Assembly (NCBI GenBank): GCA_963678065.2
Contig: CAXXVZ010000002.1
Coordinates: forward strand, 416,001 to 480,000
Direction: 5' to 3'
Origin: Treponemataceae bacterium
Lineage (GTDB): Bacteria > Spirochaetota > Spirochaetia > Treponematales > Rectinemataceae
Length of the DNA: 64,000 nucleotides
Under the pieces are notes generated by a model. That model worked only from the letters and a program-made list of their open reading frames with translations, ran no database searches and was not told where the DNA came from. This document shows, in pieces, positions 9,465 to 38,675 of the stretch (positions are counted from its first letter, which is position 1; every line of letters begins with the position of its first letter). A program made the translations under genes and the position numbers.

Positions 9465-10622
9465 TCATATCGCCACCTGCTCAATCAGGTCCGAAGGCAC
9501 GCTCATCGAAGGCAACTCCAGTCCATCGCAGAAGAAGTGGATCGATCCATCCAGCCACTTCGCGACAGTGACCTTTCTTTTCCGGTCCGTTTTGCCTCTA
9601 CCGCGGGAAATCAGGAGATGTCTGTATTTCTCGGGCTCCGGCAGATTTTCGACGCTGATTTCGCACTCCGTGCTGTAGCAGAAAATCCTGCGGAGGTCGG
9701 TGCCATCGAGTATCGGAACGTGGTAATCCTCGAGTCCCCGGGGTTTACCGGCTACAAGGGCGTTGAGCGAGACCACCTTCCGGCAGCGGAAAAAGATGTC
9801 GGTCTCAACAATGGATTCAGTTTGTGCGTCTTCCAGTGCCTTCTTCAGTTTCTCTATTTCACTTTCCATCCGGCGCGCGATGCATGTACTCTTTGCAGGG
9901 TTCAAGGGAAGAATATCGATTCCGAGTTTATCGCAGGCTTGGGCGAAAAAAGTGCGCTGCTCCAACCCCATCAATTCCTGTTCCAGGGTCAGATGGATCC
10001 GCTTATCGGTTATCAACGCTTTCTGACAGCAGAGCGAGACAGGTATCCCGTATCGTTCCAGCCATGCCCAAAGGAGTCGCATGGGAACTGAAATGCCCTT
10101 GTCGTGTTCGATCGCTGCCAGAGTTACTCCGGTATCGTCATCCTGGAGCAGATGGAGCGAGCAAATCGTCGCGTCTTTTTTGAGCCATTGTCCCTGGACG
10201 GCGAGGTGCACAAGGCATCGGCCGAACCCGCCGGCTTGCCCGACCTCCTGCCTTGCGTCGGTTCTCGATCGTTGTCCCATCCACAGACCCCGGGACATCA
10301 ACCATCGCCTCAGAGTCTCATGGTCGACGGCTATTCCCTGTGCGTTCAGGGTCTTGCAGAACTCCGTCGGACCCAAGCCTCTGTAGGGACCTGCATACTG
10401 CGAGAGCACCCATTCCTTGAAGGATCCCGCGTAGGACCTGTTCGATTGACGGCCTTTGTTTCGATGCTCGATACCCCGGGGTCCCTCTTCCAAATACCGT
10501 TTCCAGAGCCGGCGCATCTGCCTGTAGGAGAGATTGAGCTCGTCTGCGGCGGCACTCAGAGATTCTCTTCCGGCACGGACCTCTTCGAGAATCGTACACC
10601 GCAAATCCAAGGTTCCCCTCAT
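9465..10622 (-). CDS. Catalytically degenerate ISNCY/IS1202-like transposase derivative (intact HTH region, DDE motifs lost); candidate transcription factor
   Basis: The N-terminus 'LSYRQMRRLWKRY.EEG..G..H.NKGR.SNR' and 'GPT...HETLRRWL...GLW', and C-terminal 'D.H.P...DL..IFC' and 'V.KWLDGS.H' match this transposase family. The catalytic motif positions read HLAVQ, LCCQK and PAKSTCIARR. Confidence 0.8.
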   Translation of the reverse strand: MRGTLDLRCTILEEVRAGRESLSAAADELNLSYRQMRRLWKRYLEEGPRGIEHRNKGRQSNRSYAGSFKEWVLSQYAGPYRGLGPTEFCKTLNAQGIAVDHETLRRWLMSRGLWMGQRSRTDARQEVGQAGGFGRCLVHLAVQGQWLKKDATICSLHLLQDDDTGVTLAAIEHDKGISVPMRLLWAWLERYGIPVSLCCQKALITDKRIHLTLEQELMGLEQRTFFAQACDKLGIDILPLNPAKSTCIARRMESEIEKLKKALEDAQTESIVETDIFFRCRKVVSLNALVAGKPRGLEDYHVPILDGTDLRRIFCYSTECEISVENLPEPEKYRHLLISRGRGKTDRKRKVTVAKWLDGSIHFFCDGLELPSMSVPSDLIEQVAI

Positions 10623-10682
10623 TCAGTCACCTCCGATCTGGAGCAGGTAAGCAACCGGGTGCCAACATTTTTTGCACAAGGA

Positions 10683-10711
10683 ATGGTATGGCTGAATTTG
10701 TTGTTTGTCAA
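10683..10711 (-). promoter_or_regulatory. Sigma70 promoter of the transposase-derived gene and aor
   Basis: TTGACA-17-TACCAT on the minus strand; perfect SD GGAGGTGA just before ATG 10622. Confidence 0.7.
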
Positions 10712-10733
10712 TTGTTAATTGTTAACAATTGAC
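10707..10733. promoter_or_regulatory. Palindromic operator, GntR-like
   Basis: GTCAATTGTTAA-ttg-TTAACAATTGAC with perfect 12-bp arms; overlaps the -35 of the minus-strand promoter. Confidence 0.65.
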
Positions 10734-10782
10734 GTGTCCGTCTATTTGCAAGAACATTTGTTATACTTAAATAATAACCGAT

Positions 10783-10846
10783 TGACAGATCTAAAGAGTT
10801 TAATCAACAGCAAAAATTGACCGCGTAAGACTTTGATAGATAGCAT
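10783..10846 (+). promoter_or_regulatory. 18-bp directional site 1 plus promoter
   Basis: TGACAGATCTAAAGAGTT (10783-10800), then TTGACC (10817)-18-TAGCAT. Confidence 0.6.
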
Positions 10847-10882
10847 CTACCGTATTTGAAAGATCGTCATCAGGAGGCGTGT

Positions 10883-12190
10883 ATGAAGAGATCACTTTTC
10901 TTGGCTTTTGCCGCGATCATGTTCTTCTCGTTGATATCCGATATCACGGCGCAGTCGGCGAAAAAAGTCGCACTGACCTGGTGGGTGTATCCCCGCTTTA
11001 CGACCGCGGGCAAGGACCCCGGCGTCTACGAGCAGGAGATCGCCGACCGGTACTGCAAGGAGAATCCGAACGTCTCCATAAAGGTCGAGGCGCTCTCCTA
11101 CAACGGCGGGCCAGCCAAGGTCAATGTCGCGATCGCCACAGACTCCATGCCAGACTTGCTGATCGACGATCCGATCCGGCTCATCGCGGACTATGCGGCC
11201 CGGGGCGCCCTCGTTCCGATGGACGATGTCATCGACTTGAAGACCATCCAGCCCGGCTTCCTCGCGGACTGCTACATGGATGGCAAGATGTATATGTACC
11301 CAATTTCGGCGCTATGCTACTGCGTCGGCGTAAACAAAACAGCCTTCGAGAAGGCCAAGGCCCTCGACAAGTTGCCGCTAAACAGGCCTGATCGCAGCTG
11401 GACCTTCGACGAGTACACGAAGGCCCTCGAGGCCGTCAAAGGCTTGCCGGGCATGTACGCGACCGCCTTGTGGGCGGGGAACGAGCAGGGAGACTCCGCC
11501 GGGAGGCTGCTCGTCCAGAACTGGGGCGCGCAGCTCTTCTCTGCCGGCAACAAGCGCATCACCCTGAACGACGCGGCGGGCGTCAAGGGCATGGAGTGGC
11601 TCCTCAGTCTGAAGACGAAGGGACTGCTGGCGCCCGGCGTCGAGAGCCTGACCATGACGGACATGATCGACCTCTTCAACCAGGGGCGAGTCGCCGTTGG
11701 AACCTACTATTCGTCCGACCAATACGCGGTGCTCCTGGGCATGCAGAAGGAGAAGAAGGCCGCCGATTTCGAGCTGGTCTTCTTCCCCTATCCGACGGCG
11801 CCAGGGGTCAAGTCTGTGACCACCCTCGCGCAGACCGGGATCTCCGTGTTCAAGAACACCGATCCCGACAAGATCGCGGCGGCGAAGAAGTTCGCGAAAT
11901 GGGTCTGCACGACACCCGATATCGTCGCGATGTCGCAGGGACATATCCCCGCGGTCAAAGGCCTGCCCGCCCTTGGCGATACCAAGAACTGGTCCGAGCT
12001 CAAACTCATGGAGAAGTGGGGCGCCGCGAACTCAGTCTATTCCGGTCGCACGCTGAAGGGATTGTCCGAGATCAGGACCTTCTGGTTCCCGAATCTCCAA
12101 GCTATGTTCACCGGCGCGAAGACCCCCAAGCAGGCCCTCGACGACTTCGTGACAAGCGCGAACAAGGTGATGGAGAAGTATTACCCGTAA
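10883..12190 (+). CDS. Carbohydrate ABC transporter substrate-binding protein (CUT1)
   Basis: Signal peptide; SBP_bac_1-like 'MPDLL' and 'DGKMYMYP'; AGGAGG RBS. Confidence 0.9.
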   Translation: MKRSLFLAFAAIMFFSLISDITAQSAKKVALTWWVYPRFTTAGKDPGVYEQEIADRYCKENPNVSIKVEALSYNGGPAKVNVAIATDSMPDLLIDDPIRLIADYAARGALVPMDDVIDLKTIQPGFLADCYMDGKMYMYPISALCYCVGVNKTAFEKAKALDKLPLNRPDRSWTFDEYTKALEAVKGLPGMYATALWAGNEQGDSAGRLLVQNWGAQLFSAGNKRITLNDAAGVKGMEWLLSLKTKGLLAPGVESLTMTDMIDLFNQGRVAVGTYYSSDQYAVLLGMQKEKKAADFELVFFPYPTAPGVKSVTTLAQTGISVFKNTDPDKIAAAKKFAKWVCTTPDIVAMSQGHIPAVKGLPALGDTKNWSELKLMEKWGAANSVYSGRTLKGLSEIRTFWFPNLQAMFTGAKTPKQALDDFVTSANKVMEKYYP

Positions 12191-12213
12191 GTGCTTTCGA
12201 CGATCGCTGGCAT

Positions 12214-12269
12214 CGTACCCGGCGCCGAACCCTGTTTGCCGCAAGGCTGCGAGGGGGGCGCCGGGTACG
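12214..12269. other. GC-rich hairpin downstream of the SBP gene
   Basis: 13-bp arms CGTACCCGGCGCC ... GGCGCCGGGTACG. Confidence 0.5.
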
Positions 12270-12488
12270 CTCGTTCCGCGCAGCCCTCGAGCGGGGAAGT
12301 GCCTATGACATCGAGGGAGAGGGACAGCGCGCCCGGGCGCATGGCTCGCTTGAAAAGGCTTGAGAGCGCCTGCGGAAAGGGTCGCTCGGGACATACGGCA
12401 TTTTCGCGGGGCACACGAACCCGAGGGCTCTACGAGTCCGGAATGCTCCGCAAGCCCTCCGCGCCCGTCCGCCGCATGATCGGCGCGA

Positions 12489-12550
12489 TGACATTTCTAA
12501 AGAGCAGATGAGCCTGTCGCTTTGGCATATCCATGGGATTGCCCTATAGT
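12489..12550 (+). promoter_or_regulatory. 18-bp directional site 2 plus internal promoter
   Basis: TGACATTTCTAAAGAGCA (12489-12506), then TTGGCA (12522)-17-TATAGT. Confidence 0.7.
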
Positions 12551-12593
12551 GTGCCTGTCCAGAATGCCAGCGAAGCCGACGAGGAGCCAGCGG

Positions 12594-13478
12594 GTGCGTG
12601 AAAGAAAAGCGCGCGTCACGGGCAAGGAGATCGCGGCCGGCTATATCTTCGTCCTGCCGGCACTGCTATTCTTTCTTGTCTTTCAGATTTATCCCCTCTT
12701 CCGAACCGTGGCCCTGAGCCTCATGGAATACGCCGGCAAGTCCTTCCGTTTCGTCGGCCTCCAGAACTACCGCGACCTCGCCGCGAATCCCGTCTTCCTG
12801 AAATCGATCATCAACTCGACCCTCTTCGTCGTCCTGAACGTGCCTGTAATCATCGTTTTCGCCCTCGCCATTTCCTTCTTCATCTACCGCAAGTCGACAA
12901 GGTCACTCGGGTTCTACCGCATCGCCTTCTACCTTCCCTCGGTCGCGTCGATCGTCACGATCTGCATTGTCTGGAAGAACATGCTGAACCCGATAATGGG
13001 CCTGATCAACTATCTGACCGGCAGGATGGGAATACCGCCCATCAACTGGCTCGGGAGCAATTACGCCCTGGGTACCCTCTCCCTCATACTCTTCTCGATC
13101 AACGTCGGTATGTCGATCATTCTCTACATCGCCGCGATGCAGGGAATCTCTCACGAGATAACCGAAGCGGCGCTGATCGACGGCGCGAACAAGTGGACCC
13201 TCTTCGTGAGAATCATCATCCCTCTCGTGGGGCCGACGACGCTATTTGTCATAGTCATCAACACGATCAACCTCTTTCAGTCATTCGCCCTCGTGAATCT
13301 CATGACCAAGGGCGGTCCCTTCTATTCCACGACGACGATCGTATTCCAGCTCTACGAGACGGCTTTCGGACTCCAGAAATTCGGACTCGCCTCGGCGATG
13401 GGCATCTGTCTCGGAGTGATCATATCGCTTGTTTCGGTATTCCAGTTCAAGATCGCCGACAGGACCACAGGGTCCTGA
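12594..13478 (+). CDS. Carbohydrate ABC permease
   Basis: EAA motif 'EAALIDGA'; GTG start after GAGGAG (start uncertain). Confidence 0.9.
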   Translation: MRERKARVTGKEIAAGYIFVLPALLFFLVFQIYPLFRTVALSLMEYAGKSFRFVGLQNYRDLAANPVFLKSIINSTLFVVLNVPVIIVFALAISFFIYRKSTRSLGFYRIAFYLPSVASIVTICIVWKNMLNPIMGLINYLTGRMGIPPINWLGSNYALGTLSLILFSINVGMSIILYIAAMQGISHEITEAALIDGANKWTLFVRIIIPLVGPTTLFVIVINTINLFQSFALVNLMTKGGPFYSTTTIVFQLYETAFGLQKFGLASAMGICLGVIISLVSVFQFKIADRTTGS

Positions 13479-13500
13479 TCCGGTGGAAGGGAAAAGCCTC

Positions 13501-14349
13501 ATGCGCCAGGTACACGGAACGATAGACGGGACACGATGGAAGATCGCCGAGCGGGTCACCTCGGCGCTGATTTTCATTATCGCGCTGCTCTTCCTGTTCC
13601 CCTTCTACTGGACCTTGACGGGCGGGTTCAAGACTCGCTTTGACCTCATGGGCTTCGTCCCGCAATGGTTCCCCCTGCACCCGACGCTCGACAACTTCAC
13701 CAAGATATTCTCGAAGACCGGCGGACGCTGGCTCTTCAACAGCGTAGTCATGGCCAGTTCCTACACATTCCTGACGGTCCTCGTGTGCACGATGGCAGGC
13801 TACTCCCTCGCGAAGAAGCGCTTCCCGGGCAGGCAGATGATCTTCTGGATGTTCATCATGGTGATGGCGATACCGAAGAACACCATGCTCGTCCCCCTCT
13901 TCCTCCTCATAAAGGACCTCAGGATCGTGGACAACTATCTCGGCGTGATCCTTCCCTTCATAGCATGGCCCTTCGGCATATTCCTGATGAGGCAGTTCAC
14001 GCAGACCCTTCCCGACGAGCTCTTCGACGCAGCGAAGATAGACGGAGCTTCCGAATATTATATCTTCGTCAAGATAGTCGTTCCCCTCGTCGTTCCGGGG
14101 ATTATAAGTCTCTCGGTCTTTGCCTTCAGGGACAGCTGGAACGACTACTTCTGGCAACTCATCGCCCTGTCCCGCGGATCGATGAAGACTCTGCCATTGG
14201 GTATAGCGGCCATGATGGACGAGACTTTCGTCGAATACGGAATGCTCATGGCGGGGAGCGTTGTCGCCTCTCTTCCGATCATCATTGTCTTCCTCGTCTT
14301 CCAGAGGTATTTCACGGCGGGCATCGCGATGAGTGCCGTCAAAGGTTGA
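13501..14349 (+). CDS. Carbohydrate ABC permease
   Basis: 'DAAKIDGA', 'WNDYFW', C-terminal 'AVKG'. Confidence 0.9.
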   Translation: MRQVHGTIDGTRWKIAERVTSALIFIIALLFLFPFYWTLTGGFKTRFDLMGFVPQWFPLHPTLDNFTKIFSKTGGRWLFNSVVMASSYTFLTVLVCTMAGYSLAKKRFPGRQMIFWMFIMVMAIPKNTMLVPLFLLIKDLRIVDNYLGVILPFIAWPFGIFLMRQFTQTLPDELFDAAKIDGASEYYIFVKIVVPLVVPGIISLSVFAFRDSWNDYFWQLIALSRGSMKTLPLGIAAMMDETFVEYGMLMAGSVVASLPIIIVFLVFQRYFTAGIAMSAVKG

Positions 14350-14629
14350 AAGCAGCTCATCGCTCCGAGGGGCCCATCCTGCCCGGCGAAGGATCGCTCC
14401 GGCGAGCCAGGAGGATGCGCATAGTCACCATGCGCCACGAGGAGGACAGCCTCCCTGTCCGCGACCTCGCCCGAAGTCTCCGGAAGCGACATGAAGAATA
14501 TGAGTTCGCTCAACGGCCTCGGACGCGAAGTCGATTGCCAGAGGCGATGAGACAGTCGAAGCGGGTTAGCCGGTTCGGCACTCGTTCCCGTCTTCGCGGA
14601 TATGATGCAAGTGCATTTGGAGGTGGAAA

Positions 14630-15838
14630 ATGAAGGTATCAGGACTTGAGACGATCAGGCTCGGGGAATTCCCCAGCATCCTTTTTCTCCGGGTTCACAC
14701 GGATGAAGGCCTCATCGGCCTCGGCGAGAACTGCGTCGGCGTGGAGGCTGTCGAAGCCTTCATCCACGAAACGATCGCGCCGCGCATCCTGGGGAAGGAT
14801 CCCCTCGCGATTACGGCGATACACGAATCCCTTCACCAGGACTTCATAGGATTCGCCGGTTCCTCGGCCGCGGTGCGTGGCGCATCGAGCCTGGACATAG
14901 CCTTGTGGGACATTCTGGGACAGGCGACATCCTGTCCGATCTACCAACTCCTGGGCGGCAAGGTCCGCGACCGCATCCGCGTCTACAACACCTGCGCAGG
15001 CTCCGCCTACGCGCGCGGCTCGTCGAATATAGACCGGAACAGGAAAGCCCAGATCGGCACGCCGACAGGCGTGGATTTCGAGGACTTGATAGGTTTCATC
15101 AATTCGCCCGACGAGCTTGTGGCCAGCCTGAAATCTATGGGCATGACGGCGATGAAGATCTGGCCATTCGACGAGGCGGCGATGCGCTCGGGCGGGCAGA
15201 CGATTTACAAATCGGACCTGCGCGACGGCGTGGACATCTTCCGCAGGGCGCGCGAGGCCGCAGGTCCGGATTTCGACATCATGCTCGAGATGCATTCGCT
15301 CTGGTCCTGTCCGGCGGCCACGATGATCGCGGGGGCGGTCTCCGAATACTCGCCATTCTGGATAGAGGACGCGCTGCGGCACGAAAGCACCGAGGCGCTG
15401 GTCCGGTTCAAGCGCTCAACCTCCATCCCGGTGACAGTTGGGGAGACGACCGGCACGAGGTGGGACTATCATCGCCTGCTCTCCTCCCGGGCGGTGGATC
15501 ATGTGATGTTCGATCCTGGTTGGGTGGGGGGTATCACCGAGGCGGTGAAGGTCATCGCGCTCGCGTCGACCTACGGTGTTCCGGTCGCGCCGCACGACTG
15601 CACGGGTCCCGTCGTGCTCACGGTAGGCACCCACCTGGGAATCGCGTCCCCGACCATCGAACTTCAGGAAATGGTGCGCAATTTCTATTTCGGCTGGTAC
15701 GCCGATATGCTGACGGAGCTCCCGGCCTATTCGGACGGCCACATCTCCCCCCCATCCGGGCCCGGGCTGGGCACCGCCCTGCAGCCAGGGATAAGCGAAC
15801 GGAGCGACGCGATCGTGCGGTGGAGCAGGCTTGGGTGA
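14630..15838 (+). CDS. Mandelate racemase/enolase superfamily acid-sugar dehydratase
   Basis: 'DIALWDILG...PIYQLLGG', 'MKIWPFD', metal ligands E/E/E, 'PHDCTGP'. Confidence 0.9.
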   Translation: MKVSGLETIRLGEFPSILFLRVHTDEGLIGLGENCVGVEAVEAFIHETIAPRILGKDPLAITAIHESLHQDFIGFAGSSAAVRGASSLDIALWDILGQATSCPIYQLLGGKVRDRIRVYNTCAGSAYARGSSNIDRNRKAQIGTPTGVDFEDLIGFINSPDELVASLKSMGMTAMKIWPFDEAAMRSGGQTIYKSDLRDGVDIFRRAREAAGPDFDIMLEMHSLWSCPAATMIAGAVSEYSPFWIEDALRHESTEALVRFKRSTSIPVTVGETTGTRWDYHRLLSSRAVDHVMFDPGWVGGITEAVKVIALASTYGVPVAPHDCTGPVVLTVGTHLGIASPTIELQEMVRNFYFGWYADMLTELPAYSDGHISPPSGPGLGTALQPGISERSDAIVRWSRLG

Positions 15839-15910: not shown

Positions 15911-16963
15911 TCATCTTCCCAACCCCTCCTCGAACATGGCGACGGCGTTTCCCATCGGCGTGTCCAGTTCGAGAAAGTGGGTAGGCGCGAGGATGTAGCC
16001 CGAGCCGCCCGAAGCGGCCACGATGCGTCGCGTTTCCTTTCGGACCTCATCGGGATTCCCGTGGGCCAATATGCTCTGGAGGCCTACCATACCGTGAAAA
16101 ACGATATGCCTCCCGAAATCCCTGAACAGCCCTCCGGCGTCCATACCCTCGGCCTCTACCTGTACGGCCTGGTAGATATCGAGACCCAGATCGATCCAAT
16201 GGGGGATGTGGGCGCGGTTCGATCCGCAGGAGTGGAGCATCACTTTCGCGCCATATTTGTGGCCAAGGTCGATGAAAGCCCTGAGCTTGGGCGCGAAGAC
16301 TGTTTTCCACGAATCTATGTTCATGAGGGGTCCGTTCTGGGTTCCGTAGTCGTCGCCAATCCAGAGCACGTCGATCTTGCCATTGGCCTTTCGCAGCGCC
16401 CGTTCGGCGACTTCGAGGAGTATCTCCTGCCGTTTCTCCAGGAGGGCGAGTCCCACCGGATCTTCGAGGGCTATATCGACGAGGACTTGCTCCATGCCCC
16501 GTCCGAAGGATGTGCCATTGATGAGGTCCATTATTCCTGGATGGCCAAACACGACGACATACTTGTCGCGGATGCGGTCGCAGCGGCTCTCAATGTCCGA
16601 AAAGTCAAAAAGGTCGGGCGAGGGCCACGGATACGCCTCGACCTCGTCCATGGACGAGATGTCCGCGAAAGGCCGATACTCGACCTCATCGTAGGTTCCA
16701 TAGATGTTGACGACGGGACGGCGACGGACTCCCCACATGTCCGTGAAGAAACCGCGCTCATCCTTTTCATAAGGAGCGCGGAAGTCGTGATGCATGAGGT
16801 GGCGGAAGTCTATGTCGAGGAGCTCAAGAGCCTCGTCGTAGCTGCCGGCCCCGAGGTGGCGGACGAGGCGCTCGGGAACTTGTCCCTCGGCGATGCAATC
16901 GATGGGCGGCCTGTCACAGCGTTCATGCTTCATCGTCGCCTCGAAACGCGAGCGGTGAGTCAT
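15911..16963 (-). CDS. Uroporphyrinogen decarboxylase/MtaA-CmuA family protein
   Basis: 'GDDYGTQNG', 'HSCG', 'GYILAPTH'. Confidence 0.85.
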   Translation of the reverse strand: MTHRSRFEATMKHERCDRPPIDCIAEGQVPERLVRHLGAGSYDEALELLDIDFRHLMHHDFRAPYEKDERGFFTDMWGVRRRPVVNIYGTYDEVEYRPFADISSMDEVEAYPWPSPDLFDFSDIESRCDRIRDKYVVVFGHPGIMDLINGTSFGRGMEQVLVDIALEDPVGLALLEKRQEILLEVAERALRKANGKIDVLWIGDDYGTQNGPLMNIDSWKTVFAPKLRAFIDLGHKYGAKVMLHSCGSNRAHIPHWIDLGLDIYQAVQVEAEGMDAGGLFRDFGRHIVFHGMVGLQSILAHGNPDEVRKETRRIVAASGGSGYILAPTHFLELDTPMGNAVAMFEEGLGR

Positions 16964-21432: not shown

Positions 21433-21494
21433 ATGCTAAACGAGCCACATTCCTGGGTCAAAATGCCGGATGAATACACTCGATAGAATTGTCA
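21433..21494 (-). promoter_or_regulatory. 18-bp directional site 3 plus promoter
   Basis: Minus strand TGACAATTCTATCGAGTG (21494-21477), then TTGACC (21461)-17-TAGCAT. Confidence 0.75.
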
Positions 21495-21547
21495 TGACGG
21501 ACCGCCGCCAGGAAAGCGCGACAGCCTCCTTGCCTGAGTTTTTTCGC

Positions 21548-24181: not shown

Positions 24182-25327
24182 TCAGACTGCGGTGTTCAGG
24201 GGATACTTGCCGGCTGCGAGCGCCTCCTCGAACAGCGCAATCACGTTTTCCGGTGGAACGTCGGGCTGGATGCAATGCACGGCGGAGCAGATGTAGCCGC
24301 CTCCTGGCCCCAGGTCCGCAATCCGGCGGCGAACCTCCGCGCGCACCTCCGCCGGCGTGCCTCTGGGCAGGACGGCCTGCGTGTCGATCCCTCCGCAGAA
24401 GGAAAGTCGCCTGCCAAACTCCCGTTTCAGGCGGGCCGTGTCTCCCATGTCGCCCGCCGAGACCTGCACCGGGTTCAGGAGCTCCACGCCGAGTTCGATC
24501 AGGTCGCCGATCAGGGGATAGATGTTCCCGTCGGTGTGGTAGAAGATTTTTGCTTTCGTCTTTCGCCTGATCGCGGACATGATCTCCGCGTGGAAGGGCT
24601 TGATGAGCCCGCGATACATGCCCGGCGAGATCAAGAGGGTATCCTGGCCCGCCAGATCGTCGCCCATGACAAGGACGTCGATGCAGTCGCCGGCCTCTTT
24701 GAGCAATCCTTCCACGGCCGCGAGCTGGAGGTCGGTCACCTTGCGCATCAGCGCTCTGGCGAAGTCCGGGTCCCCCGCCAGGTCCATCATCCAGTTCTCG
24801 ATGCCGCGCAGCATGCCGCAGTACTCGAAGGGCGACACGCCAGAAAGCGCCACGACGGCGTAGCCGGAATCCTGGATCTCCCGCGCCCTGGCCGCCATGC
24901 CGGCGAAGCGGACAGGATTGGCGAGGTCAGGCCAGGGGTGCCGCGCGATGTCGTCGATCGCGGCCTGCCCGAGAGGTGGCTTGGAGATCTCGTAATAGTG
25001 GCCGCCGGGCGCGCGAGACCAGGGGATGCCCCAGCCGTCCACGAAGGCGTCGCCGGGCAGTTCCCGCTCGTTGACCGTCGGCGCCGGGCCTGCCGTCAAC
25101 ATGCGCCCGTCGGATCCGAAACGCCGCATGACTTCCTCGTCGAGCAGGGAGTACTGGAGGGCGCGCCAGAAAACCTTGGTCTGGCTACTGATATGGAGGT
25201 GAGCCTTGAGACGATCGTAGGCCGCCGCCAGCATGGTTGTGGCGCCGGATGCGCCGATGAAAATCGGCACACGGTCCGGCTCCTCGTGATTCAAGGCGCA
25301 GAGCACCCGTTCGCGCGAGGTCATCAT
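24182..25327 (-). CDS. UroD/MtaA-CmuA family protein
   Basis: 'HEEPDRVP', 'GDDLAGQ', 'HTDG', 'HCIQPDVPPEN'. Confidence 0.88.
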   Translation of the reverse strand: MMTSRERVLCALNHEEPDRVPIFIGASGATTMLAAAYDRLKAHLHISSQTKVFWRALQYSLLDEEVMRRFGSDGRMLTAGPAPTVNERELPGDAFVDGWGIPWSRAPGGHYYEISKPPLGQAAIDDIARHPWPDLANPVRFAGMAARAREIQDSGYAVVALSGVSPFEYCGMLRGIENWMMDLAGDPDFARALMRKVTDLQLAAVEGLLKEAGDCIDVLVMGDDLAGQDTLLISPGMYRGLIKPFHAEIMSAIRRKTKAKIFYHTDGNIYPLIGDLIELGVELLNPVQVSAGDMGDTARLKREFGRRLSFCGGIDTQAVLPRGTPAEVRAEVRRRIADLGPGGGYICSAVHCIQPDVPPENVIALFEEALAAGKYPLNTAV

Positions 25328-29623: not shown

Positions 29624-30733
29624 TCAGTAAGTTCCGATTTCCAGACCCCGCTCGACGAAATGACGGTAGGTTGCGTACTCGACCTTATGGCTCACGCTGT
29701 GGTCGCTCTGCAGCACATACCCGCTGCCCGCCATGGCCGCCGGAAGCTTTTTCTCCAGCTCGGCATCGACCAGCGCGAGGTCGTTCGTTTCCAGGACCCT
29801 TTCGTCCATCCCTCCGATCAGGGCTATCTTTTCGCCGAAATTGCGCTTGATCCTCACGAGGTCCATGCCCGCTTTGACCTCGATGGGTTGGAGGCAATTG
29901 ATACCTGCCTCGATGAGATGCGGGATGAGCGCCTCGACGAAGCCGTCGCAGTGCAGGACGACAGGCAGGCCGCGGCTGTGGGCGAAATCGAAAAGTCGCT
30001 TGTGGGCGGGAAAGATAATCTCTCTATACATGTGCGGGGACATGAACGGAGTGCCCTTGTAGCCGAGATCATCCCAGACCCAGAGCCCATCCGGCAGGCC
30101 TTCTCTTTCGAATAGTATTTCCAGCAACTTGATCGTCACTTCGGCGAAAGTCAAAGCCATCTCGCTCACCCACTCGCCATCGAGGGCCATACCGGCGAGC
30201 AAGTGTTCGTGGCCGCACATCGGGGACATGAGATCGAAGGCTGCGATCGTACCGCAGTTGAAGAACAGGGAATCGCGCGCGCACTTCGCGCGCAGGTTCC
30301 GGTAGTGCTCGAAATCGATGCGCCGTTCGTAGCTCCGCTCGTCCCGCAGATGGGGCAGGATGAGCTCTTCCCAACTCTGACGATCCCTGACGGTGAAATC
30401 CACGTGCTCGGGAGCGCCCGAACCGTTTTTCAGCCAGCGCAGGTAGGCGCCATTCCCGTCCCGTATCAGCTTGACCGAATCATTCTCCTCGACGACGGTC
30501 TCGCCGGCATCGAGGTCGGCCATGAGATTCACCGCCTTCCACGACATCGGCGTGACTTCCCCGCCCGTCCGCCGGATGTCGAGCCCGAAATGGTCGCTCG
30601 CCGCATCCGGCCTTTCCAGATATCCCTGCTCTGTCCAAGCCTGAGCGGTTTCTCCCCAAAAGACCTCGAACAGGCCTATCCTGTCGACCGGTTCGTGCCT
30701 GAGTATCCGGGAGAATCTCTCCTTTCCGTCCAT
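29624..30733 (-). CDS. UroD/MtaA-CmuA family protein
   Basis: 'WDDLGYK', 'HCDG', 'SDHSV'. Confidence 0.85.
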   Translation of the reverse strand: MDGKERFSRILRHEPVDRIGLFEVFWGETAQAWTEQGYLERPDAASDHFGLDIRRTGGEVTPMSWKAVNLMADLDAGETVVEENDSVKLIRDGNGAYLRWLKNGSGAPEHVDFTVRDRQSWEELILPHLRDERSYERRIDFEHYRNLRAKCARDSLFFNCGTIAAFDLMSPMCGHEHLLAGMALDGEWVSEMALTFAEVTIKLLEILFEREGLPDGLWVWDDLGYKGTPFMSPHMYREIIFPAHKRLFDFAHSRGLPVVLHCDGFVEALIPHLIEAGINCLQPIEVKAGMDLVRIKRNFGEKIALIGGMDERVLETNDLALVDAELEKKLPAAMAGSGYVLQSDHSVSHKVEYATYRHFVERGLEIGTY

Positions 30734-30793: not shown

Positions 30794-31567
30794 TTACGAA
30801 CCTTTTTCCTTGGCGCCCCGAACCGCGGGTGTTTTTTCCGCCGGATTTGCCTGGCGTTCCGTGTCGTCGGTCTGTTGGGCTATGAGGGTGAGATTGGACT
30901 CCGATACCTCGATGTGGCGCGTCATCGCAGCGCGCGCGAGCTCCGGGTTTTTCTCCCTGAGCGCCTCGATAATGCGCATATGGCCATTCTTCGCCTCCTC
31001 GAGCGCACGGGCGGAATAGGCGTAGTCGAAGAGGTTGATCATGATGCTCTTGAGCGGCTGCAGGAGGGAACTGAAGAGCGGATTCCTGGTTACGCTCGCG
31101 ATGGTCTGGTGGAATTTGAAATCGAGCAGTGTCATCTTCTCCCGGACATGGAGGTTCGCCCTCATCTCACAGGCGATGTCCTCCAGGTTTTCGATGTCCT
31201 CTTTGGTCGCGCGAAGGGCCGCCAGCTCGCAGGCCTTGACCTCGAGAACGGATCGTATCTCGAAGTAATCCCTGATCGTCAAATCGTTCAGGACCATAAA
31301 GCGGTTCATCATGTCGCTGAGATCGGTCGGCTTGGGTTTGGTGATGTAGCTGCCGTCTCCGTTCTTCACCTCAAGCAGGCCGCGGGCTTTGACGTTGCGC
31401 AGGGCTTCCCGCATGATATTCCGGCTGACGCCGAACTGATCGGCCAGACTCTGTTCGGAAGGTAGTTTTTCCCCCACCTTGAGCCTGCCGCACAGGATGG
31501 CCTCTTCCAGCGAGGCTGCGACCATTTCGTGTTTGTTGTTGGTTTGAATCTTGGCAAAACTCGCCAT
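30794..31567 (-). CDS. FadR/GntR family regulator
   Basis: 'LPSEQSLADQFGVSR..REAL'; FCD domain 'DFKFH'. Confidence 0.92.
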   Translation of the reverse strand: MASFAKIQTNNKHEMVAASLEEAILCGRLKVGEKLPSEQSLADQFGVSRNIMREALRNVKARGLLEVKNGDGSYITKPKPTDLSDMMNRFMVLNDLTIRDYFEIRSVLEVKACELAALRATKEDIENLEDIACEMRANLHVREKMTLLDFKFHQTIASVTRNPLFSSLLQPLKSIMINLFDYAYSARALEEAKNGHMRIIEALREKNPELARAAMTRHIEVSESNLTLIAQQTDDTERQANPAEKTPAVRGAKEKGS

Positions 31568-32418: not shown

Positions 32419-32479
32419 ATCATAAACCCGGAATGATCCCTTGGCCAGAAAAGCCCACGCTCACTCGATAGAAATGTCA
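32419..32479 (-). promoter_or_regulatory. 18-bp directional site 4 plus promoter
   Basis: Minus strand TGACATTTCTATCGAGTG (32479-32462), then TGGCCA (32447)-17-TATGAT. Confidence 0.7.
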
Positions 32480-32514: not shown

Positions 32515-32577
32515 GGTCATTTCTAATGAGTGTTATCACCTGCGCCGCTTTATCATGAAGGCACCATGTTGTATCGT
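32515..32577 (+). promoter_or_regulatory. 18-bp directional site 5 plus weak promoter
   Basis: GGTCATTTCTAATGAGTG (32515-32532), with a partial tandem copy GGTCATTTCT at 32502. Candidate promoter TTTATC (32549)-17-TATCGT is ambiguous. Confidence 0.55.
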
Positions 32578-33504: not shown

Positions 33505-34176
33505 ATGCTTGCACCGGTCGACAAGAGTTCACTTTCCGTCGAAGTCGCCAACAATATCCGCTTGGGCATACTTAGTGGAAGAATCCAGCCGGGACAAAAA
33601 CTCCTCGAGCAGGAACTTTCCGAACAGCTGAACACGAGCAGGGGACCGATCAGGGATGCATTCATACGCCTCGAGCAGGAAGGTCTGGTCCTCCGGGAGC
33701 CCAACCGGAGCGTCAAGGTCGTCATCATGACCGAGGAGGACATCGAGGAGATCCACAGTCTCAGGCTCTCGATGGAGCAGTTGGCCCTGCGCTACATCTG
33801 CAGCGGCCGCTCAAAACCGGACGTTTCGCGCTTGCGGACCATCGTCGATAAACTTCGCACCAGCATCACCGAAGGCGCCGTTCTGGAACAAGCCGTCGAA
33901 ATGGACCTCGAATTCCACGAGGAAATTGTGCGGGCTTCGGGCCACAGACGGCTCCACAAGCTCTGGCTGAGCCTCAAGCCTCAGATCGGTTTTCTCATCT
34001 ATACGAAGAACATCCATAATGTCTACAACTTTGCCGGCGGTTCAGACCAACACGAAGAGCTTATCGAAGCGATCGAAAAAATGGAAATCGCGAAATGCGA
34101 GAAAATAATCCGCGAGCATCTTAACAGCGTCCTCAATACTTTGCTCGAAAGCTATCGTGCGAAACCCGGCGCCTGA
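33505..34176 (+). CDS. GntR (FCD) family regulator
   Basis: 'LNTSRGPIRDAF', 'DLEFH'; TTGACA at 33415 upstream. Confidence 0.9.
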   Translation: MLAPVDKSSLSVEVANNIRLGILSGRIQPGQKLLEQELSEQLNTSRGPIRDAFIRLEQEGLVLREPNRSVKVVIMTEEDIEEIHSLRLSMEQLALRYICSGRSKPDVSRLRTIVDKLRTSITEGAVLEQAVEMDLEFHEEIVRASGHRRLHKLWLSLKPQIGFLIYTKNIHNVYNFAGGSDQHEELIEAIEKMEIAKCEKIIREHLNSVLNTLLESYRAKPGA

Positions 34177-34260
34177 CCGGGTGTAAGGCGCTCTGCCTCG
34201 TTCTCTGCCTCGTCTCCTTCCTGAACGACAGCGTCGGGCATTCCGCTGTGGGTCCGGGCG

Positions 34261-34323
34261 GGACATTTCTAAGGAGCAGGGCGAGCCTGCACCTTGTGGT
34301 TCCCGGACCTGCAAACCTATCAT
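34261..34323 (+). promoter_or_regulatory. 18-bp directional site 6 plus promoter (likely leaderless mRNA)
   Basis: GGACATTTCTAAGGAGCA (34261-34278), then TTGTGG (34294)-18-TATCAT; ATG 7 nt later. Confidence 0.65.
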
Positions 34324-34329
34324 TCGGCC

Positions 34330-35334
34330 ATGAAGAGCCATATCAGCGCGGTGCTCGATCGGGAAACCCTCCTCTTGCTGTACCGGAAGATGGTCGAGAT
34401 ACGCAAATGCGAAGAGCGCCTTATCAAGTCCTTCCAGGCAGGGCTCATTTACGGCGGCTGCCACACCTACATCGGAGAGGAGCCGATCGCGACAGGCCTG
34501 AGCGCCCACCTCAGGAAAGACGACTATGTATTCGGAACGCATCGAGGTCATGGGCACGCGATCGCCAAGGGGCTGGAACCTTTCGAACTGTTCGCGGAGC
34601 TCTACGGTCGCTCAGGCGGCGCTTCCGGCGGCCGCGGAGGCAGCATGCACCTGTTCAAGCCCGAAATAGGACTCATGGGCACGAACGGCATCGTGGGACC
34701 AAGTATCCTTCTCGCGACGGGCGCCGCCTATGCCTTCAAGCTCAACAGGACCGATCGCGTCGCCGTGGCCTATTTCGGCGACGGGGCTGTCAACAACGGG
34801 GCATTCCACGAAGGCTGCAACATGGCTGCCAATTGGGAGCTTCCCGTCATACTCGTGTGCGAGAACAATCTCTACGCGACTGAGGTTCCCTTCTCCTCGG
34901 TGACGAAGCAGACCAGCGTCGTCAAGCGGGCCGCGGGCTATGGGCTCAGGTGCGCCGTCGCCGATGGCACCGACATGCTCGAAGTCTACGCCAGAGCCGG
35001 TGATGCGATCGCGCTCGCCCGCGCGGGCAAGGGCCCGACCCTCCTCGAGTTCAAGACCTATCGGCATCGTTCGCACGCCGAGGGCATGCCCGAGTCCGGC
35101 TATCGGTCCAGGGAAGAGGTCGAGCACTGGAAAAAACGCGATCCGATCAAGCGGTTCTCGGAGTACATCACGGCGGGTTCGATCGCGAGTGCCGATGAAT
35201 TGGCCGCCATTGACCGGGAGATCGCGAAGAAGATCGATGTTTCCAATGCGGAGGCCTTGAAGAGCCCTTCCCCCGATCCATCGACCGAGTTCGACCATGT
35301 CCTCGCGGACCCATCAGGAGGAGCCCGTGCGTGA
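34330..35334 (+). CDS. TPP-dependent dehydrogenase E1 alpha (acetoin/pyruvate DH-like)
   Basis: 'HRGHGH', 'GGSMH', TPP motif 'GDGA...ENN'. Confidence 0.9.
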   Translation: MKSHISAVLDRETLLLLYRKMVEIRKCEERLIKSFQAGLIYGGCHTYIGEEPIATGLSAHLRKDDYVFGTHRGHGHAIAKGLEPFELFAELYGRSGGASGGRGGSMHLFKPEIGLMGTNGIVGPSILLATGAAYAFKLNRTDRVAVAYFGDGAVNNGAFHEGCNMAANWELPVILVCENNLYATEVPFSSVTKQTSVVKRAAGYGLRCAVADGTDMLEVYARAGDAIALARAGKGPTLLEFKTYRHRSHAEGMPESGYRSREEVEHWKKRDPIKRFSEYITAGSIASADELAAIDREIAKKIDVSNAEALKSPSPDPSTEFDHVLADPSGGARA

Positions 35335-36304
35335 GCTCAGCTATATCGAGGCGGCGCGCGAGGCCCTCACCGAGGAGATGGCCCGCGATTCCACGATCTT
35401 CGTCGTCGGCGAGGGCATAGGTCGCCGTGGCGGAAATTTTAGCACGACGGTCGGCTTGTTCGATCGCTATGGCCCCGAGCGCCTGTGCGACACTCCCATC
35501 AGCGAGCGCGGATTCACGACCATGTGCATCGGCGCGGCGGCGGCCGGCGCACGGCCTGTGGTTGACTGCATGTTCGTCGACTTCGCCCTCGACGCGATCA
35601 GCGATCTCGTGAACCAGGCATCAAAGATGCGGTGGATGAGCGGCGGCCGTGTCAGCGTACCGATCGTCGTCAGAGCATGTATGGGCATCTTCTCCTCGGG
35701 AGCGGCGCACCATTCAGGAAACTATTACTCGTTCTTTGCCCACATCCCGGGTTTTCATGTCGTTCTACCCGCCACGCCCGCCGATGCGAAGGGTCTTCTC
35801 AAGACATCCCTTCGCTCGAAGGACCCCGTTATTTTTCTCGAGCACCGTGCCCTGCTCGGATTGAAGGGACCGGTGCCCGAGGGAGAATATGCCATTCCCT
35901 TCGGCCAGGCGGCTGTCGTTCGCGAGGGACGGGATATGACGATTGTGGCCATCTCGGCGATGGTGCCGCGCAGCATCGAGGCCGCGCAGGTTCTCGAAAA
36001 AGAAGGCATCTCGGTAGAGATCATCGATCCACGGACCGTGGCTCCCCTCGACATAGAAACTATTCGCCGGTCGGTCTCGAAAACAGGCAGGCTGCTCATC
36101 GTCGAGGAGGACTACGCGCCCTGCAGCGTGGCCGCGGAAATCGCCGCGCGCATCTGCGACGAGTCCTTCGATGATCTCGATGCGCCGATCCGCAGGCTTC
36201 ATGCCGGTTTCGCGCCGGCGCCCTATAGTCCCTCGCTCGAGAAAGCCGTAATCATCAGCGCCGATTCCATCGTCCGCAGCGTCCGCGAGCTGCGGGCGGA
36301 ATGA
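35327..36304 (+). CDS. TPP-dependent dehydrogenase E1 beta
   Basis: 'DTPISE', 'DAKGLL', 'IDPRTVAPLD'. Confidence 0.9.
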   Translation: MRELSYIEAAREALTEEMARDSTIFVVGEGIGRRGGNFSTTVGLFDRYGPERLCDTPISERGFTTMCIGAAAAGARPVVDCMFVDFALDAISDLVNQASKMRWMSGGRVSVPIVVRACMGIFSSGAAHHSGNYYSFFAHIPGFHVVLPATPADAKGLLKTSLRSKDPVIFLEHRALLGLKGPVPEGEYAIPFGQAAVVREGRDMTIVAISAMVPRSIEAAQVLEKEGISVEIIDPRTVAPLDIETIRRSVSKTGRLLIVEEDYAPCSVAAEIAARICDESFDDLDAPIRRLHAGFAPAPYSPSLEKAVIISADSIVRSVRELRAE

Positions 36305-36313
36305 GGTCATCCC

Positions 36314-37429
36314 ATGGCTAGCGACGTCATCATTCCCCGCATCGGGTGGTCGATGGAGAAGGGCGTATTCGTCGAATGGCTCAGGAAGGAGGGAGACGCA
36401 ATCGCTGTTGGCGATGCGCTGTTCCTCATCGAAGCCGACAAGGCAAACGCGGAAGTCGTCTCGGAGGAGGCGGGCGTCCTGCACATCTTTCCGGGACGGG
36501 CGAAGCAGGGTGACGAACTGATGGTCGGCACCGTGATCGGCTGCCTCCTCGATGCGGGTGAGGCCCTGCCCGGAGACGTTGCGCCAGCAGGCGCGGCGCC
36601 CGCGGAGGTTCCTGCAGGAGCTGCACTGCCCGCCAGCCCGGCTGCGATGCCCCCCGGGCCTCCCGGACAAGCGCCAGAGCATGGATCCAGGATCGTTTCC
36701 TCCCCGCGCGCCCGCCGGGTATCCAGGGAATTGGGTGTAGATTTGATCGGGCTTGCAGGCTCAGGCAAGGGCGGCCGGATAATCGAGCGCGATGTCCGGA
36801 GAGCGGTGACCGCGCCGGAACGGAGGCAGGCATCGGAGTATCTGGCGGACCGGACTTCGATCCTGTCCACCATCCGCCTGACCGTGGACGCGACCGAACT
36901 CGTGTCGCTTCTCGAACGGCTTTGCAGCTCGGGGGCCGACGCCCGTCTCGCACCGGGCCGCTATCGGGGGCTTCTCGTCAAGTTCGCCGTTTCGGCCTAT
37001 CAACATGCCTTTGACGCAGCGAATGCCGGAGCGGGCGCCGACATCGCCTACGGTTCCTTAGTGGATGAGAGGATCTCCTGGGACTCCCTCCGCGGTGCGC
37101 GGCGAAAAGGTCTGGATGAACTTGCCCTCGAACTCGATTCGGGCGAAGGCAAAGCAGGCAGTCTTTCGGGTCTGGAATCTTTCGCCTTCATCGATCTTGG
37201 CGCCTTCGGCGTCGACGAGTACATTCCCGGCGTCGAGATCCCCTCCAGTCTACTCCTCTGTTTCGGCCGACTCATCGAGGGAAAGGTGCAGGAGAAAGTC
37301 CAGTCCCGCACCCAAACCCTGAAAATCGGCCTCTCCTTCAAGGAGAATCTCGTCAGCTTTGCGCAGGCGTCCCGATTCCTGGGAAACCTCGGATCCGCAC
37401 TCCTCGACCCTGTTCTCTGGCTCCTCTGA
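36314..37429 (+). CDS. E2-like protein: lipoyl and E1/E3-binding domains with a degenerate acyltransferase domain
   Basis: Lipoyl motif 'EADKA'; PSBD 'SPRARR...GSGKGGRI...DV'; the catalytic DHRxxDG position reads 'FKENLVSF'. Confidence 0.75.
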   Translation: MASDVIIPRIGWSMEKGVFVEWLRKEGDAIAVGDALFLIEADKANAEVVSEEAGVLHIFPGRAKQGDELMVGTVIGCLLDAGEALPGDVAPAGAAPAEVPAGAALPASPAAMPPGPPGQAPEHGSRIVSSPRARRVSRELGVDLIGLAGSGKGGRIIERDVRRAVTAPERRQASEYLADRTSILSTIRLTVDATELVSLLERLCSSGADARLAPGRYRGLLVKFAVSAYQHAFDAANAGAGADIAYGSLVDERISWDSLRGARRKGLDELALELDSGEGKAGSLSGLESFAFIDLGAFGVDEYIPGVEIPSSLLLCFGRLIEGKVQEKVQSRTQTLKIGLSFKENLVSFAQASRFLGNLGSALLDPVLWLL

Positions 37430-37530
37430 ATCCATGCGCGCGATGACCGCGCACGAATGATTCAGGGCATGTTCGCGCACAGAGAGGCCGATCGCGTCGT
37501 CATGTGGGACTTCCCGCGGCCACCGATGGT

Positions 37531-38502
37531 CTAGCCGGCCACCCCATTCACGATATTCGGGAGTTTCTGTCTCCTGATCGCGATGGCGACAGTCTTCGCC
37601 GCGTCGGTACGGAGCTTGAGGACAGCCTGGGGACTCGCCGACGCAATGTGCGAATTGATGATCACGTTCTCCATGCCGACGATCGGGTGGTCGTGGTTGA
37701 TCGGCTCTGGATCGGTAACGTCCATCGCGGCGGCGGCTATCTGGCCCGAGCGGAGCGCGGCGACGAGGTCATCGGTGCGCACCAAGGTGCCCCGCGAAAT
37801 GTTGACGAAAAGGCAACCTCGCTTCATCTTCGCGATCGACGATGCGTTGATCATGTACCGTGTCGTCTCCGTGCTGGGGCAGTGGAGGGTGACTATATCG
37901 CTCTGCGCATAGAGTTCGTCGAGGGTGACGGGCTCTACTCCATCGGCGCGCATCTTCGCCGCGTCGACGGCCGGATCGAAGGCAATCAGCTTGCACTTGA
38001 AGGGCCTGAGCCTTAGTGCAACTTCCCTGCCGATCTTGCCATAGGCAACGATGCCGACGGTCTGGTCCTTGAGGCTCCGCATGGCCTCGATAGGCACGGC
38101 GAGGCCCCATTCCCCATTGCGGACTTTCACGCCGTTTTGGGTGATCCTTCGGCAGAGGTCAAGTATCATCGCAAGCGTATGGTCGGCCACTTCATCCGTG
38201 CAGAAATCGGGGATGTTGCAGACAGGTATGCCCTTCGCCGCCGCGGCCTTGAGGTCGACATTGTCTACGCCGATGCCATAGCGCACGATAACCTTGCAAC
38301 GCTTCATCGCGCCGATGATGTCGGCGTTGACTGGCGCGAACTGGGTTATGACATAGTCCGCATCCTCCACGAGGGCCGCGAGGGCGGCCGGATCCTTGCC
38401 GGACTTGTTGGCTTTGAGTTCGCAACCGAGGGGTTCGATGATCGTTCGCTCGATCTCGACATCGTCGAAGGCATAATCGGTGATAACTGCTTTGGGCATC
38501 AT
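37531..38502 (-). CDS. D-isomer-specific 2-hydroxyacid dehydrogenase (CtBP-like)
   Basis: 'RYGIGVDNVD', 'GKIG', 'NISRG', 'MDV...EP', 'HIA'. Confidence 0.9.
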   Translation of the reverse strand: MMPKAVITDYAFDDVEIERTIIEPLGCELKANKSGKDPAALAALVEDADYVITQFAPVNADIIGAMKRCKVIVRYGIGVDNVDLKAAAAKGIPVCNIPDFCTDEVADHTLAMILDLCRRITQNGVKVRNGEWGLAVPIEAMRSLKDQTVGIVAYGKIGREVALRLRPFKCKLIAFDPAVDAAKMRADGVEPVTLDELYAQSDIVTLHCPSTETTRYMINASSIAKMKRGCLFVNISRGTLVRTDDLVAALRSGQIAAAAMDVTDPEPINHDHPIVGMENVIINSHIASASPQAVLKLRTDAAKTVAIAIRRQKLPNIVNGVAG

Positions 38503-38566
38503 ATTCTCCTTGCGATCATCCCCTATCATCCGCGGCTTCGGCGAGTCAATGAGAAAGCGCCCCCGT

Positions 38567-38605
38567 CACTCGATAGAAATGTCAGCATGACAATTCTATC
38601 GAGTG
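38567..38605. promoter_or_regulatory. Back-to-back 18-bp directional sites 7 and 8 at a divergent promoter
   Basis: CACTCGATAGAAATGTCA-gca-TGACAATTCTATCGAGTG. Plus promoter TTGACC (38621)-17-TAGCAT; minus -35 TTGACT at 38549 with a weak -10. Confidence 0.75.
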
Positions 38606-38675
38606 TACCAATCCGGCATTTTGACCCAAAAGTGCGGCTCGTCTAGCATGCAAACGTGGGATGGAGCAAGGGGAA

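Follow-up and report, generated by a model that had tools for sequence, protein, structure and literature searches.

How does an intact gene for a transposase devoid of catalytic residues come to stand beside a cluster of sugar-acid catabolic genes whose promoters are preceded by sequences resembling transposon ends? The question is raised by a 64,000-nucleotide stretch of a Treponemataceae genome (contig CAXXVZ010000002.1, positions 416,001 to 480,000; hereafter, the window), for which the first-pass annotation had proposed a domesticated transposase acting as a transcriptional activator through sites derived from the ends of an insertion sequence (IS). Our analysis favors, with a probability of roughly 60%, the view that the gene is a domesticated transposase of the ISTde1 subgroup of the IS1202 family that would function as a site-specific transcription activator of the sugar-acid island; judging from sequence comparison, it most likely works as a gene switch and probably as an on-switch. 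The two principal features are:

9465-10622, minus strand: gene for a homolog of IS1202/ISTde1-type transposases with a dead DDE triad, 385 amino acids (aa), proposed (predicted) transcription regulator
10856-43396, strand not specified: sugar-acid uptake and catabolism island, the proposed regulon

The 385-aa protein comprises two helix-turn-helix (HTH) domains, an RNase H fold without catalytic residues and a beta-barrel, and its C-terminus reads VAI. Pfam profiles matched only within residues 8-108 (HTH_28, HTH_29 and HTH_32), and the best NCBIfam match was transpos_ISNCY_2 (NF033594) at 148 bits, compared with the cut-off of 250 bits for this profile and 381 bits for an active relative. 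The catalytic columns D, D and E are occupied by L140, Q200 and A249/R250, and the DDE triad with a Q seven residues after the E, which characterizes active IS1202 transposases, is missing. The description of the open frame as an intact transposase homolog with an HTH region and no triad is thus accurate. The protein retains an insertion separating D from E, and its KRIHLTLEQELMG can be aligned with the DREPTLQEQLEG found in active relatives; the ISTde1 subgroup is defined by such an insertion and by 15-17 bp duplications (bioRxiv 10.1101/2022.12.17.520857). Structure prediction (pLDDT 72.6) yields a pair of helical bundles, a core resembling RNase H and a beta-barrel; the known structures that match this model best are IstA (8q4d, E 3.5e-13), TnsB (7svw) and MuA (4fcy), with TM-scores that are low (0.24-0.39) because the domain arrangement differs in the predicted model. 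The gene is the sole match across its own 5.27-Mb genome and is single-copy in G000 and in G301-G305, unlike active IS, which are expected in multiple copies. No pair of IS ends was found around L001, L031-L034 and L042, where the best candidates were identical in 10-14 of 26 positions, compared with 17-26 of 26 for active elements with a called pair. The flanks of the dead gene lack TGT...ACA terminal inverted repeats with an inner repeat, leaving no ends from which a target duplication could be read.

Among the 120 best of the 362 homologs found, 41 have lost the triad (38 retain no triad residue and three retain one), and identity among these intact dead homologs is as low as about 33%. In a quick LG+G4 tree of 135 rows, 26 dead rows form a single branch (SH-aLRT 99) that is nested inside active elements with ends ACTC..TAGAAATGTC and 15-17 bp duplications, and not among the 19-row clade with CCAA/CCAC-type ends. 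By sequence homology and tree position, the ancestry of the 385-aa protein is the ISTde1 subgroup of the IS1202 family. All dead-clade loci with DNA are in Spirochaetia or Spirochaetota records. The dead clade is under purifying selection: the nonsynonymous and synonymous substitution rates (dN/dS) for L031 versus L032, the one ortholog pair in which dS is not saturated, are 0.072/0.679 overall (~0.11) and 0.047/0.882 in the HTH region, with 0.053/0.678 for the neighboring kinase in the same pair. The HTH motifs S.R[QH] and HET[LV]RRW are present in all 41 dead homologs, as is the DGTDL/DRTDL motif, found in 16 of 79 active proteins; a C-terminal A(I/M/V) occurs in 37 of 41 dead versus 1 of 79 active proteins, whereas the basic linker motif preceding the catalytic core is kept in 2 of 41 dead versus 62 of 79 active ones. 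Mean identity among dead proteins is 58% in the first HTH domain and 38% in the RNase H domain, against 49% and 63%, respectively, among active ones.

Searches beyond this set yielded several observations on other dead homologs. None of the 80 loci obtained in a metagenome scan belonged to the dead clade, and they were used as data on IS ends and targets; no second dead-clade member was found among the loci examined in an order-wide search (37 of 301 genomes matched) or in a search of relatives (3 of 41). Another intact-looking DDE-dead homolog, on a long branch and without IS ends, is encoded in G122 (L010, contig C27; 395-aa open frame), a genome with no match to GGACATTTCTAAATTG. Among 146 new proteins, 20 were flagged as DDE-dead, some of them truncated or frameshifted; representatives outside the clade of the window are P0131, P0133, P0143, P0152, P0160, P0170, P0194, P0221 and P0262. 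One two-piece match, in G678, was left out of the loci examined.

The sites through which such a protein would act are concentrated in the island. The motif GACAWTTCTANNGAG has eight matches in the window at no more than two mismatches, six of them exact, against an expectation of 1.87, and a count of eight was reached in none of 100 shuffles. The sites take the form GACA(T/A)TTCTAnnGAG(T/C), with seven strong representatives and a weak one. Seven of the nine matches at no more than one mismatch in the whole genome fall inside the window, and a weight matrix built solely from 33 sites of five other genomes assigns ranks 1-7 in the genome to the seven strong window sites (25.4-26.6 bits), with a gap of 8 bits to the next match (17.4 bits). 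The expectation that genomic hits would be confined to promoters of this island was therefore borne out. All eight sites are oriented toward a downstream gene, and a TAnnnT -10 box stands at the expected distance in seven:

10784-10799, plus strand: weak IS-end-type site GACAGATCTAAAGAGT, with TTGACC at 10817 and TAGCAT at 10841; heads a sugar ABC transporter binding-protein gene (10856-12190)
12490-12505, plus strand: site GACATTTCTAAAGAGC, with TTGGCA at 12522 and TATAGT at 12545; heads two permease genes and a mandelate-racemase-family dehydratase gene
21478-21493, minus strand: site GACAATTCTATCGAGT, with TTGACC at 21456-21461 and TAGCAT at 21433-21438; heads ABC transporter, PfkB (KdgK-like) kinase and URO-D-family genes
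32463-32478, minus strand: site GACATTTCTATCGAGT, with TGGCCA at 32442-32447 and TATGAT at 32419-32424; heads a 2-keto-3-deoxy-6-phosphogluconate (KDPG) aldolase gene
32516-32531, plus strand: site GTCATTTCTAATGAGT, with TTTATC at 32549 and TATCGT at 32572; heads a short-chain dehydrogenase gene, then the GntR gene at 33505
34262-34277, plus strand: site GACATTTCTAAGGAGC, with TTGTGG at 34294 and TATCAT at 34318; heads the E1-alpha, E1-beta and E2 genes of a 2-oxoacid dehydrogenase
38568-38583, minus strand: site GACATTTCTATCGAGT, with TTGACT at 38544-38549 (+18) and no clear TAnnnT -10; heads a D-2-hydroxyacid dehydrogenase gene
38589-38604, plus strand: site GACAATTCTATCGAGT, with TTGACC at 38621 and TAGCAT at 38644; heads UxaE-like epimerase, transaldolase-family, short-chain dehydrogenase/reductase and FAA-hydrolase genes

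The original count of eight sites co-oriented with promoters thus stands for orientation but has to be qualified, since the site at 10784 is weak and the -10 box behind 38568-38583 is unclear. The segments 21433-21495 and 38587-38649 are near-identical and share the 16-bp site, TTGACC and TAGCAT, which suggests that a whole promoter module was duplicated. The island as a whole encodes three ABC transporters, two KdgK-like kinases, two KDPG aldolases, UxaE-like, Ldh_2, DHDPS-family and URO-D-family proteins and the 2-oxoacid dehydrogenase. URO-D-family genes lie in or beside it at 15911-16963, 24182-25327, 29624-30733 and 45246-46277, and several more are found per related island.

The ends of active relatives consist of TGT followed by two repeat copies about 26 bp apart, and the outer repeat of 74 active right ends shares with 40 regulatory sites the common 16-position consensus G-A-C-A-T-T-T-C-T-A-W-n-G-A-G-Y. 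The regulatory sites lack the terminal TTGACA that nearly all 74 active right ends have. The proposed kinship of the motif with IS1202/ISNCY end repeats is accordingly upheld, the island motif being the inner repeat of active IS1202/ISTde1-type ends; in the accessible text of PMC10132070, the inner end repeat is described as an additional transposase binding site. Another reading is that past insertions aimed at promoters left the sites behind as neutral scars and that the gene is a transposase in slow decay, and solo IS ends do stand ahead of promoters where no homolog was found (G505, G354 and one in G626). These solo ends, however, lie about 23 bp from the -35 box and have retained the terminal CTTGACA or a close match to it, which is missing from the island sites; furthermore, a dN/dS of 0.11 and 41 intact dead homologs diverged to about 33% identity do not fit a decaying gene, and the sites are conserved amid diverged flanks and head orthologous genes after rearrangement. 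We therefore regard the scar explanation as extremely improbable.

The solo right ends, GGGACATTTCTATCGAGTCTTGACA (CTTGAAA in L278 and L279), are found at L274 and L278-L283 (G626, G505 and G354), 15-17 bp ahead of -35-like boxes, with neither an inner repeat nor a partner end nearby; no transposase homolog was found in these three genomes. They are possibly intermediates between an insertion scar and a regulatory site. In G467, the locus L284 (C6:40968-41346) consists of three tandem 182-bp units, each with an IS1202-type right end, and looks like an array of miniature inverted-repeat transposable elements.

The arrangement of sites and promoters points to a role in transcription. The window sites are single, directional and located 15-18 bp upstream of -35 boxes. 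Across 35 exact sites, a TAnnnT sequence lies at +37..41 from the site in 23 cases and in none on the opposite side, and the distance to the best promoter is 14-18 bp (mode 16) in 25 of 35 against 4 of 35, although these counts overstate independence because the sites are partly orthologous. The resulting site position is about -52 to -67, with the center near -60, and it is this geometry that leads us to propose activation. Where promoters diverge, each has a single site pointing outward, as required for a protein that binds asymmetrically, and most such pairs are 5-40 bp apart. Each site presents to its promoter the side that once faced the tip of the transposon. Ahead of the UxaE-like gene, the site lies 6 bp from the best -35 box in G302 (L221:10699) versus 15 bp in G301 (L239:1072), and at L230:2304 the distance is 26 bp; these shifts by about one helical turn hint at phase dependence.

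The dead gene itself has a promoter of a different make, and its surroundings include two candidate regulators:

10627-10634, minus strand: Shine-Dalgarno sequence GGAGGTGA, 4 nt ahead of the ATG, read from the sequence
10683-10711, minus strand: sigma70-type promoter of the dead-transposase gene, TTGACA (10706-10711), 17 bp, TACCAT (10683-10688)
10719-10728: palindrome TTGTTAACAA, candidate GntR/FadR operator (TKGT-N2-ACMA), immediately upstream of the -35 box of the dead gene
33505-34176, plus strand: GntR/FCD (FadR-type) regulator, a possible repressor acting on the palindrome and the leading alternative candidate for binding the motif
30794-31567, minus strand: second GntR/FCD regulator
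7697-9484, minus strand: aldehyde ferredoxin oxidoreductase gene, the next one after that of the dead transposase

The claim of a canonical promoter and a perfect Shine-Dalgarno sequence agrees with this direct reading, and TTGACA is likewise found upstream of the orthologs L031-L034, L042 and L064. A close match to TTGTTAACAA occupies the same position in G301-G305, with a weaker one in L064, and TGTTAACA was found within the contig of the window only at the -35 box of the dead gene. The FadR-subfamily operator consensus consists of TKGT/ACMA boxes, with non-palindromic exceptions also listed in the available part of PMC4494728. For the second GntR protein, no separate best match was found in the islands from other carriers. 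The aldehyde ferredoxin oxidoreductase gene is probably co-transcribed with the dead-transposase gene, given the 16-nt gap to an ATG that has a Shine-Dalgarno sequence; the island of G303 also holds such a gene.

The sites track the gene across genomes. G301-G305 contain one dead copy each and no active copies, with 7, 7, 8, 5 and 1 exact sites, respectively. In one family of 25 genomes, several of which are incomplete, exact sites number 5-8 in each of the four full-length carriers, two in a partial carrier at a contig end (both ~16-18 bp ahead of TTGACA) and 0-2 in the remaining 20. In a sample of 401 genomes of the class, the dead clade is present in four, and at least five exact sites were found in six: three are carriers, two contain IS ends or repeats that bear such ends, and in one the matches are scattered. 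High motif counts without the gene correspond to IS ends or end-bearing repeats in G626, G533 and G467, to solo ends with terminal CTTGACA or a near copy in G505 and G354, and to scattered matches without promoter geometry in G343 and G468 (4/4 each) and G605 (3/5 looked at), in a check that set aside G449, G504 and G562, with three matches each. Gene order is reshuffled between islands, yet for each of the UxaE-like, KDPG aldolase and Ldh_2 genes a site at the head was found in four genomes; single sites on other contigs precede ilvC-like, GH2 and RraA-like genes, and sites are conserved while their flanks diverge. The first-pass annotation had called for dead-DDE orthologs with dN/dS below 1 and co-occurring motifs, and all three were found (41 of 120 homologs dead, dN/dS ~0.11, sites tracking the gene). 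At the level of sequence, what is expected of a domesticated transposase is thus seen here, namely a dead and immobile gene under purifying selection with cognate sites at host promoters that co-occur with it; the GntR gene co-occurs with them equally.

A sister lineage was observed in G654, which encodes three DDE-dead paralogs (L248, L261 and L266) and carries six isolated sites GGACATTTCTAAAT(T/A)G (L290-L295), four of which lie about 22-26 bp ahead of -35-like boxes. Tetratricopeptide repeat proteins (Pfam) are encoded behind L290 and L291, and the gene behind L292 starts like that behind L290. The island GntR was not found in G654 at E <= 1e-35. This genome possibly harbors a second regulon of the same origin.

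We collected 39 distinct active insertions (L002-L171) with both ends and a target duplication (15 bp in 4, 16 bp in 22 and 17 bp in 13). TTGAC lies directly beside the duplication in 30 of them and within one mismatch in 34, against backgrounds of 0.15% and 3%, and a -10 box follows at 16-18 bp past TTGAC in 24 of the 30 insertions versus 68 of 1080 other TTGAC occurrences. Active ISTde1-type elements insert flush against the -35 boxes of sigma70 promoters. Copies of one element always turn the same end toward the promoter, but this end varies from element to element, being the right one in 21 insertions and the left one in 13. In the accessible text of PMC10132070, no conserved target is given for the long-duplication IS1202 members, and we found no prior report of -35 targeting in the literature searched, whose coverage omits most subscription papers. 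Related elements in Azospirillum (L092-L098) adjoin dif-like CATAA-N6-TTATGG, as known for the short-duplication subgroup.

Given that active relatives insert in exactly the zone of 15-17 bp upstream of the -35 box, the protein could instead serve as a guard against transposons, occupying end-like sites or poisoning the active transposase and thereby barring promoter-seeking IS copies; no active copy was present in the six carrier genomes searched. A guard would hardly have its sites limited to one metabolic regulon among all promoters of the genome, nor would its gene be expected to carry an operator of metabolic type and to move together with the island, and we consider this role very improbable.

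Several observations qualify the case or weigh against activation by the dead transposase. The eighth site (10784), at 13.3 bits, ranks 19th among the 31 matches listed, in the background range, and promoter geometry alone speaks for it. A -10 box at the modal distance is missing in 12 of the 35 exact sites. In G305, the one exact site lacks a convincing promoter, and a further four sites, each with one mismatch, stand at the heads of operons. Because the carriers form a small set of relatives, counts across them are not independent. The distance from site to -35 box is about 16 bp, compared with 23 bp (7 + 16) for a freshly inserted IS end, and the geometry is therefore not simply inherited. 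A good TTGAC -35 box is present in 13 of the 25 promoters at 14-18 bp, and those promoters may not need an activator.

This last point also suits the possibility that binding of the sites by the dead transposase leads to repression or to no more than modulation of transcription, for example by blocking the region of the UP element and the alpha C-terminal domain or by forming a dead-end polymerase complex, something that its ancestor may likewise do where it inserts, and all the evidence linking the protein to the sites applies to it equally. Repressor sites usually overlap the core promoter, whereas these sites lie wholly upstream of the -35 box at a nearly fixed distance and orientation, and a GntR-type operator on the promoter of the gene itself would fit a cascade of repressor then activator better. 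Repression or mere modulation is, in our assessment, unlikely.

The remaining points concern the GntR/FadR protein (33505-34176), which is present in exactly the same four of 401 genomes as the dead transposase, so that distribution cannot name the binder; in addition, its gene lies inside a site-led operon in G000 and G302-G305, which fits GntR autoregulation too. On this account, the GntR protein would bind the motif, as the first-pass annotation itself had considered, and the dead transposase would be a passenger with another role; some FadR-subfamily proteins do bind non-palindromic direct repeats, according to the part of PMC4494728 available. The motif, however, is asymmetric rather than a TKGT/ACMA palindrome and matches the end repeat of the ancestors of the transposase across 16 positions, for which a GntR site would offer no reason; a separate palindrome fits TKGT-N2-ACMA; and in G654, where the GntR is missing at E <= 1e-35, dead transposases of a sister lineage and six isolated sites of the IS-end type are nonetheless present. 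Binding by the GntR protein thus appears quite improbable, and the dead transposase is favored as the binder because the motif equals an IS end, is asymmetric and coexists with a separate palindrome.

If the dead transposase is the activator, the following mechanism can be envisaged. Its two HTH domains would bind the asymmetric 16-18 bp site near -60, and the dead catalytic core and the beta-barrel would point at RNA polymerase, recruiting or stabilizing it, an orientation proposed because the formerly tip-facing side of the site now faces the promoter. Contact with the polymerase would reuse the promoter-finding ability of the ancestor. A predicted complex of the 385-aa protein with region 4 of the genome's own sigma70 scored 0.13, against a mark of 0.32, which speaks neither for nor against such contact. 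A GntR/FadR protein would repress the dead gene at TTGTTAACAA until a sugar-acid intermediate releases it, so that control would run in two steps, with this putative repressor probably gating synthesis of the proposed activator. Since the operon that contains the GntR gene is itself led by a site, negative feedback may operate in the circuit. A ClpXP tag that would switch the proposed activator off may be present in the conserved C-terminal A(I/M/V), a lead suggested by analogy with MuA, the C-terminal ClpX tag of which is RRKKAI (PMC8138137, in the accessible part).

A broader scenario, to which we give slightly less than even odds, is that an IS family seeking sigma70 promoters, probably by recognizing RNA polymerase bound to them, was pre-adapted for this role, and that in Spirochaetia one of its transposases lost catalysis but kept end binding and polymerase contact, becoming a new class of bacterial activator that is placed under a GntR repressor and runs a sugar-acid regulon from former end repeats. 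The same conversion of transposase to regulator may have occurred more than once, in the lineage of G654 and in other dead lineages.

The co-option of a transposase and its end sequences as a network of factor and sites is a well-known idea for eukaryotes, and the bacterial examples that we found derive from TnpB; a bacterial DDE transposase co-opted in this way was not found in the literature searched, within the coverage stated above. With protein, sites, regulon and living ancestors together, how a transcription factor arose can be put to direct test, and its origin is tied to a targeting rule, insertion flush against -35 boxes, in a subgroup without a conserved target in the accessible text of PMC10132070. 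The proposed system predicts a new orthogonal pair of activator and site, and it warns that some genes annotated as 'transposase' are regulators.

Compared with IS1202/ISTde1 elements, the dead protein lacks the DDE residues, the QAKGRVER motif, TGT...ACA ends and a target duplication and is encoded in a single copy, and the repeats are dispersed singly ahead of host promoters. It resembles TldR and dCas12f-sigmaE in its transposon-encoded origin, in the loss of the catalytic triad and ends and in the gain of new gene neighbors, as far as the accessible parts of the respective reports describe them (bioRxiv 10.1101/2023.11.30.569447; PMC13472631). Those regulators, however, descend from the accessory RNA-guided nucleases TnpB/Cas12f and are targeted by guide RNA, whereas the origin here is a DDE transposase that appears to read its old end sequence through protein HTH domains. 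Identity with the RuvC nuclease of TnpB/Cas12f is contradicted by the DDE transposase/integrase fold and by the HTH_28/29/32 and ISNCY profiles, no search aimed at a guide RNA having been made.

FHY3 and FAR1 are eukaryotic transcription factors derived from transposases. Among other eukaryotic cases, ALP2, CSB-PGBD3, PIF/Harbinger-derived proteins and Mutator AtMu1 are similar in that, in the portions of the reports available, the host keeps the DNA binding of the transposase and element ends serve as sites; activation by a plant Mutator transposase is described in the accessible part of bioRxiv 10.64898/2026.08.24.746577. The eukaryotic factors are chromatin-based, whereas the present case involves a bacterial sigma70 regulon with a fixed spacing between site and -35 box and an ancestor that was already promoter-homing. 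Tn7 TnsB, IS21 IstA and MuA, the best structural matches to the predicted model, likewise use asymmetric repeated end sites, and the A(I/M/V) C-terminus of 37 of the 41 dead homologs recalls the RRKKAI of MuA; unlike the dead protein, they are active enzymes with partner ATPases. In class I activation, as by CRP at lac, the site is centered near -61.5, and the sites described here, centered near -60 and wholly upstream of the -35 box, are alike in this respect. The proposed activator differs from CRP in its unrelated fold, its asymmetric site and the lack of a known ligand-binding domain, with control seemingly exerted through synthesis and perhaps through turnover.

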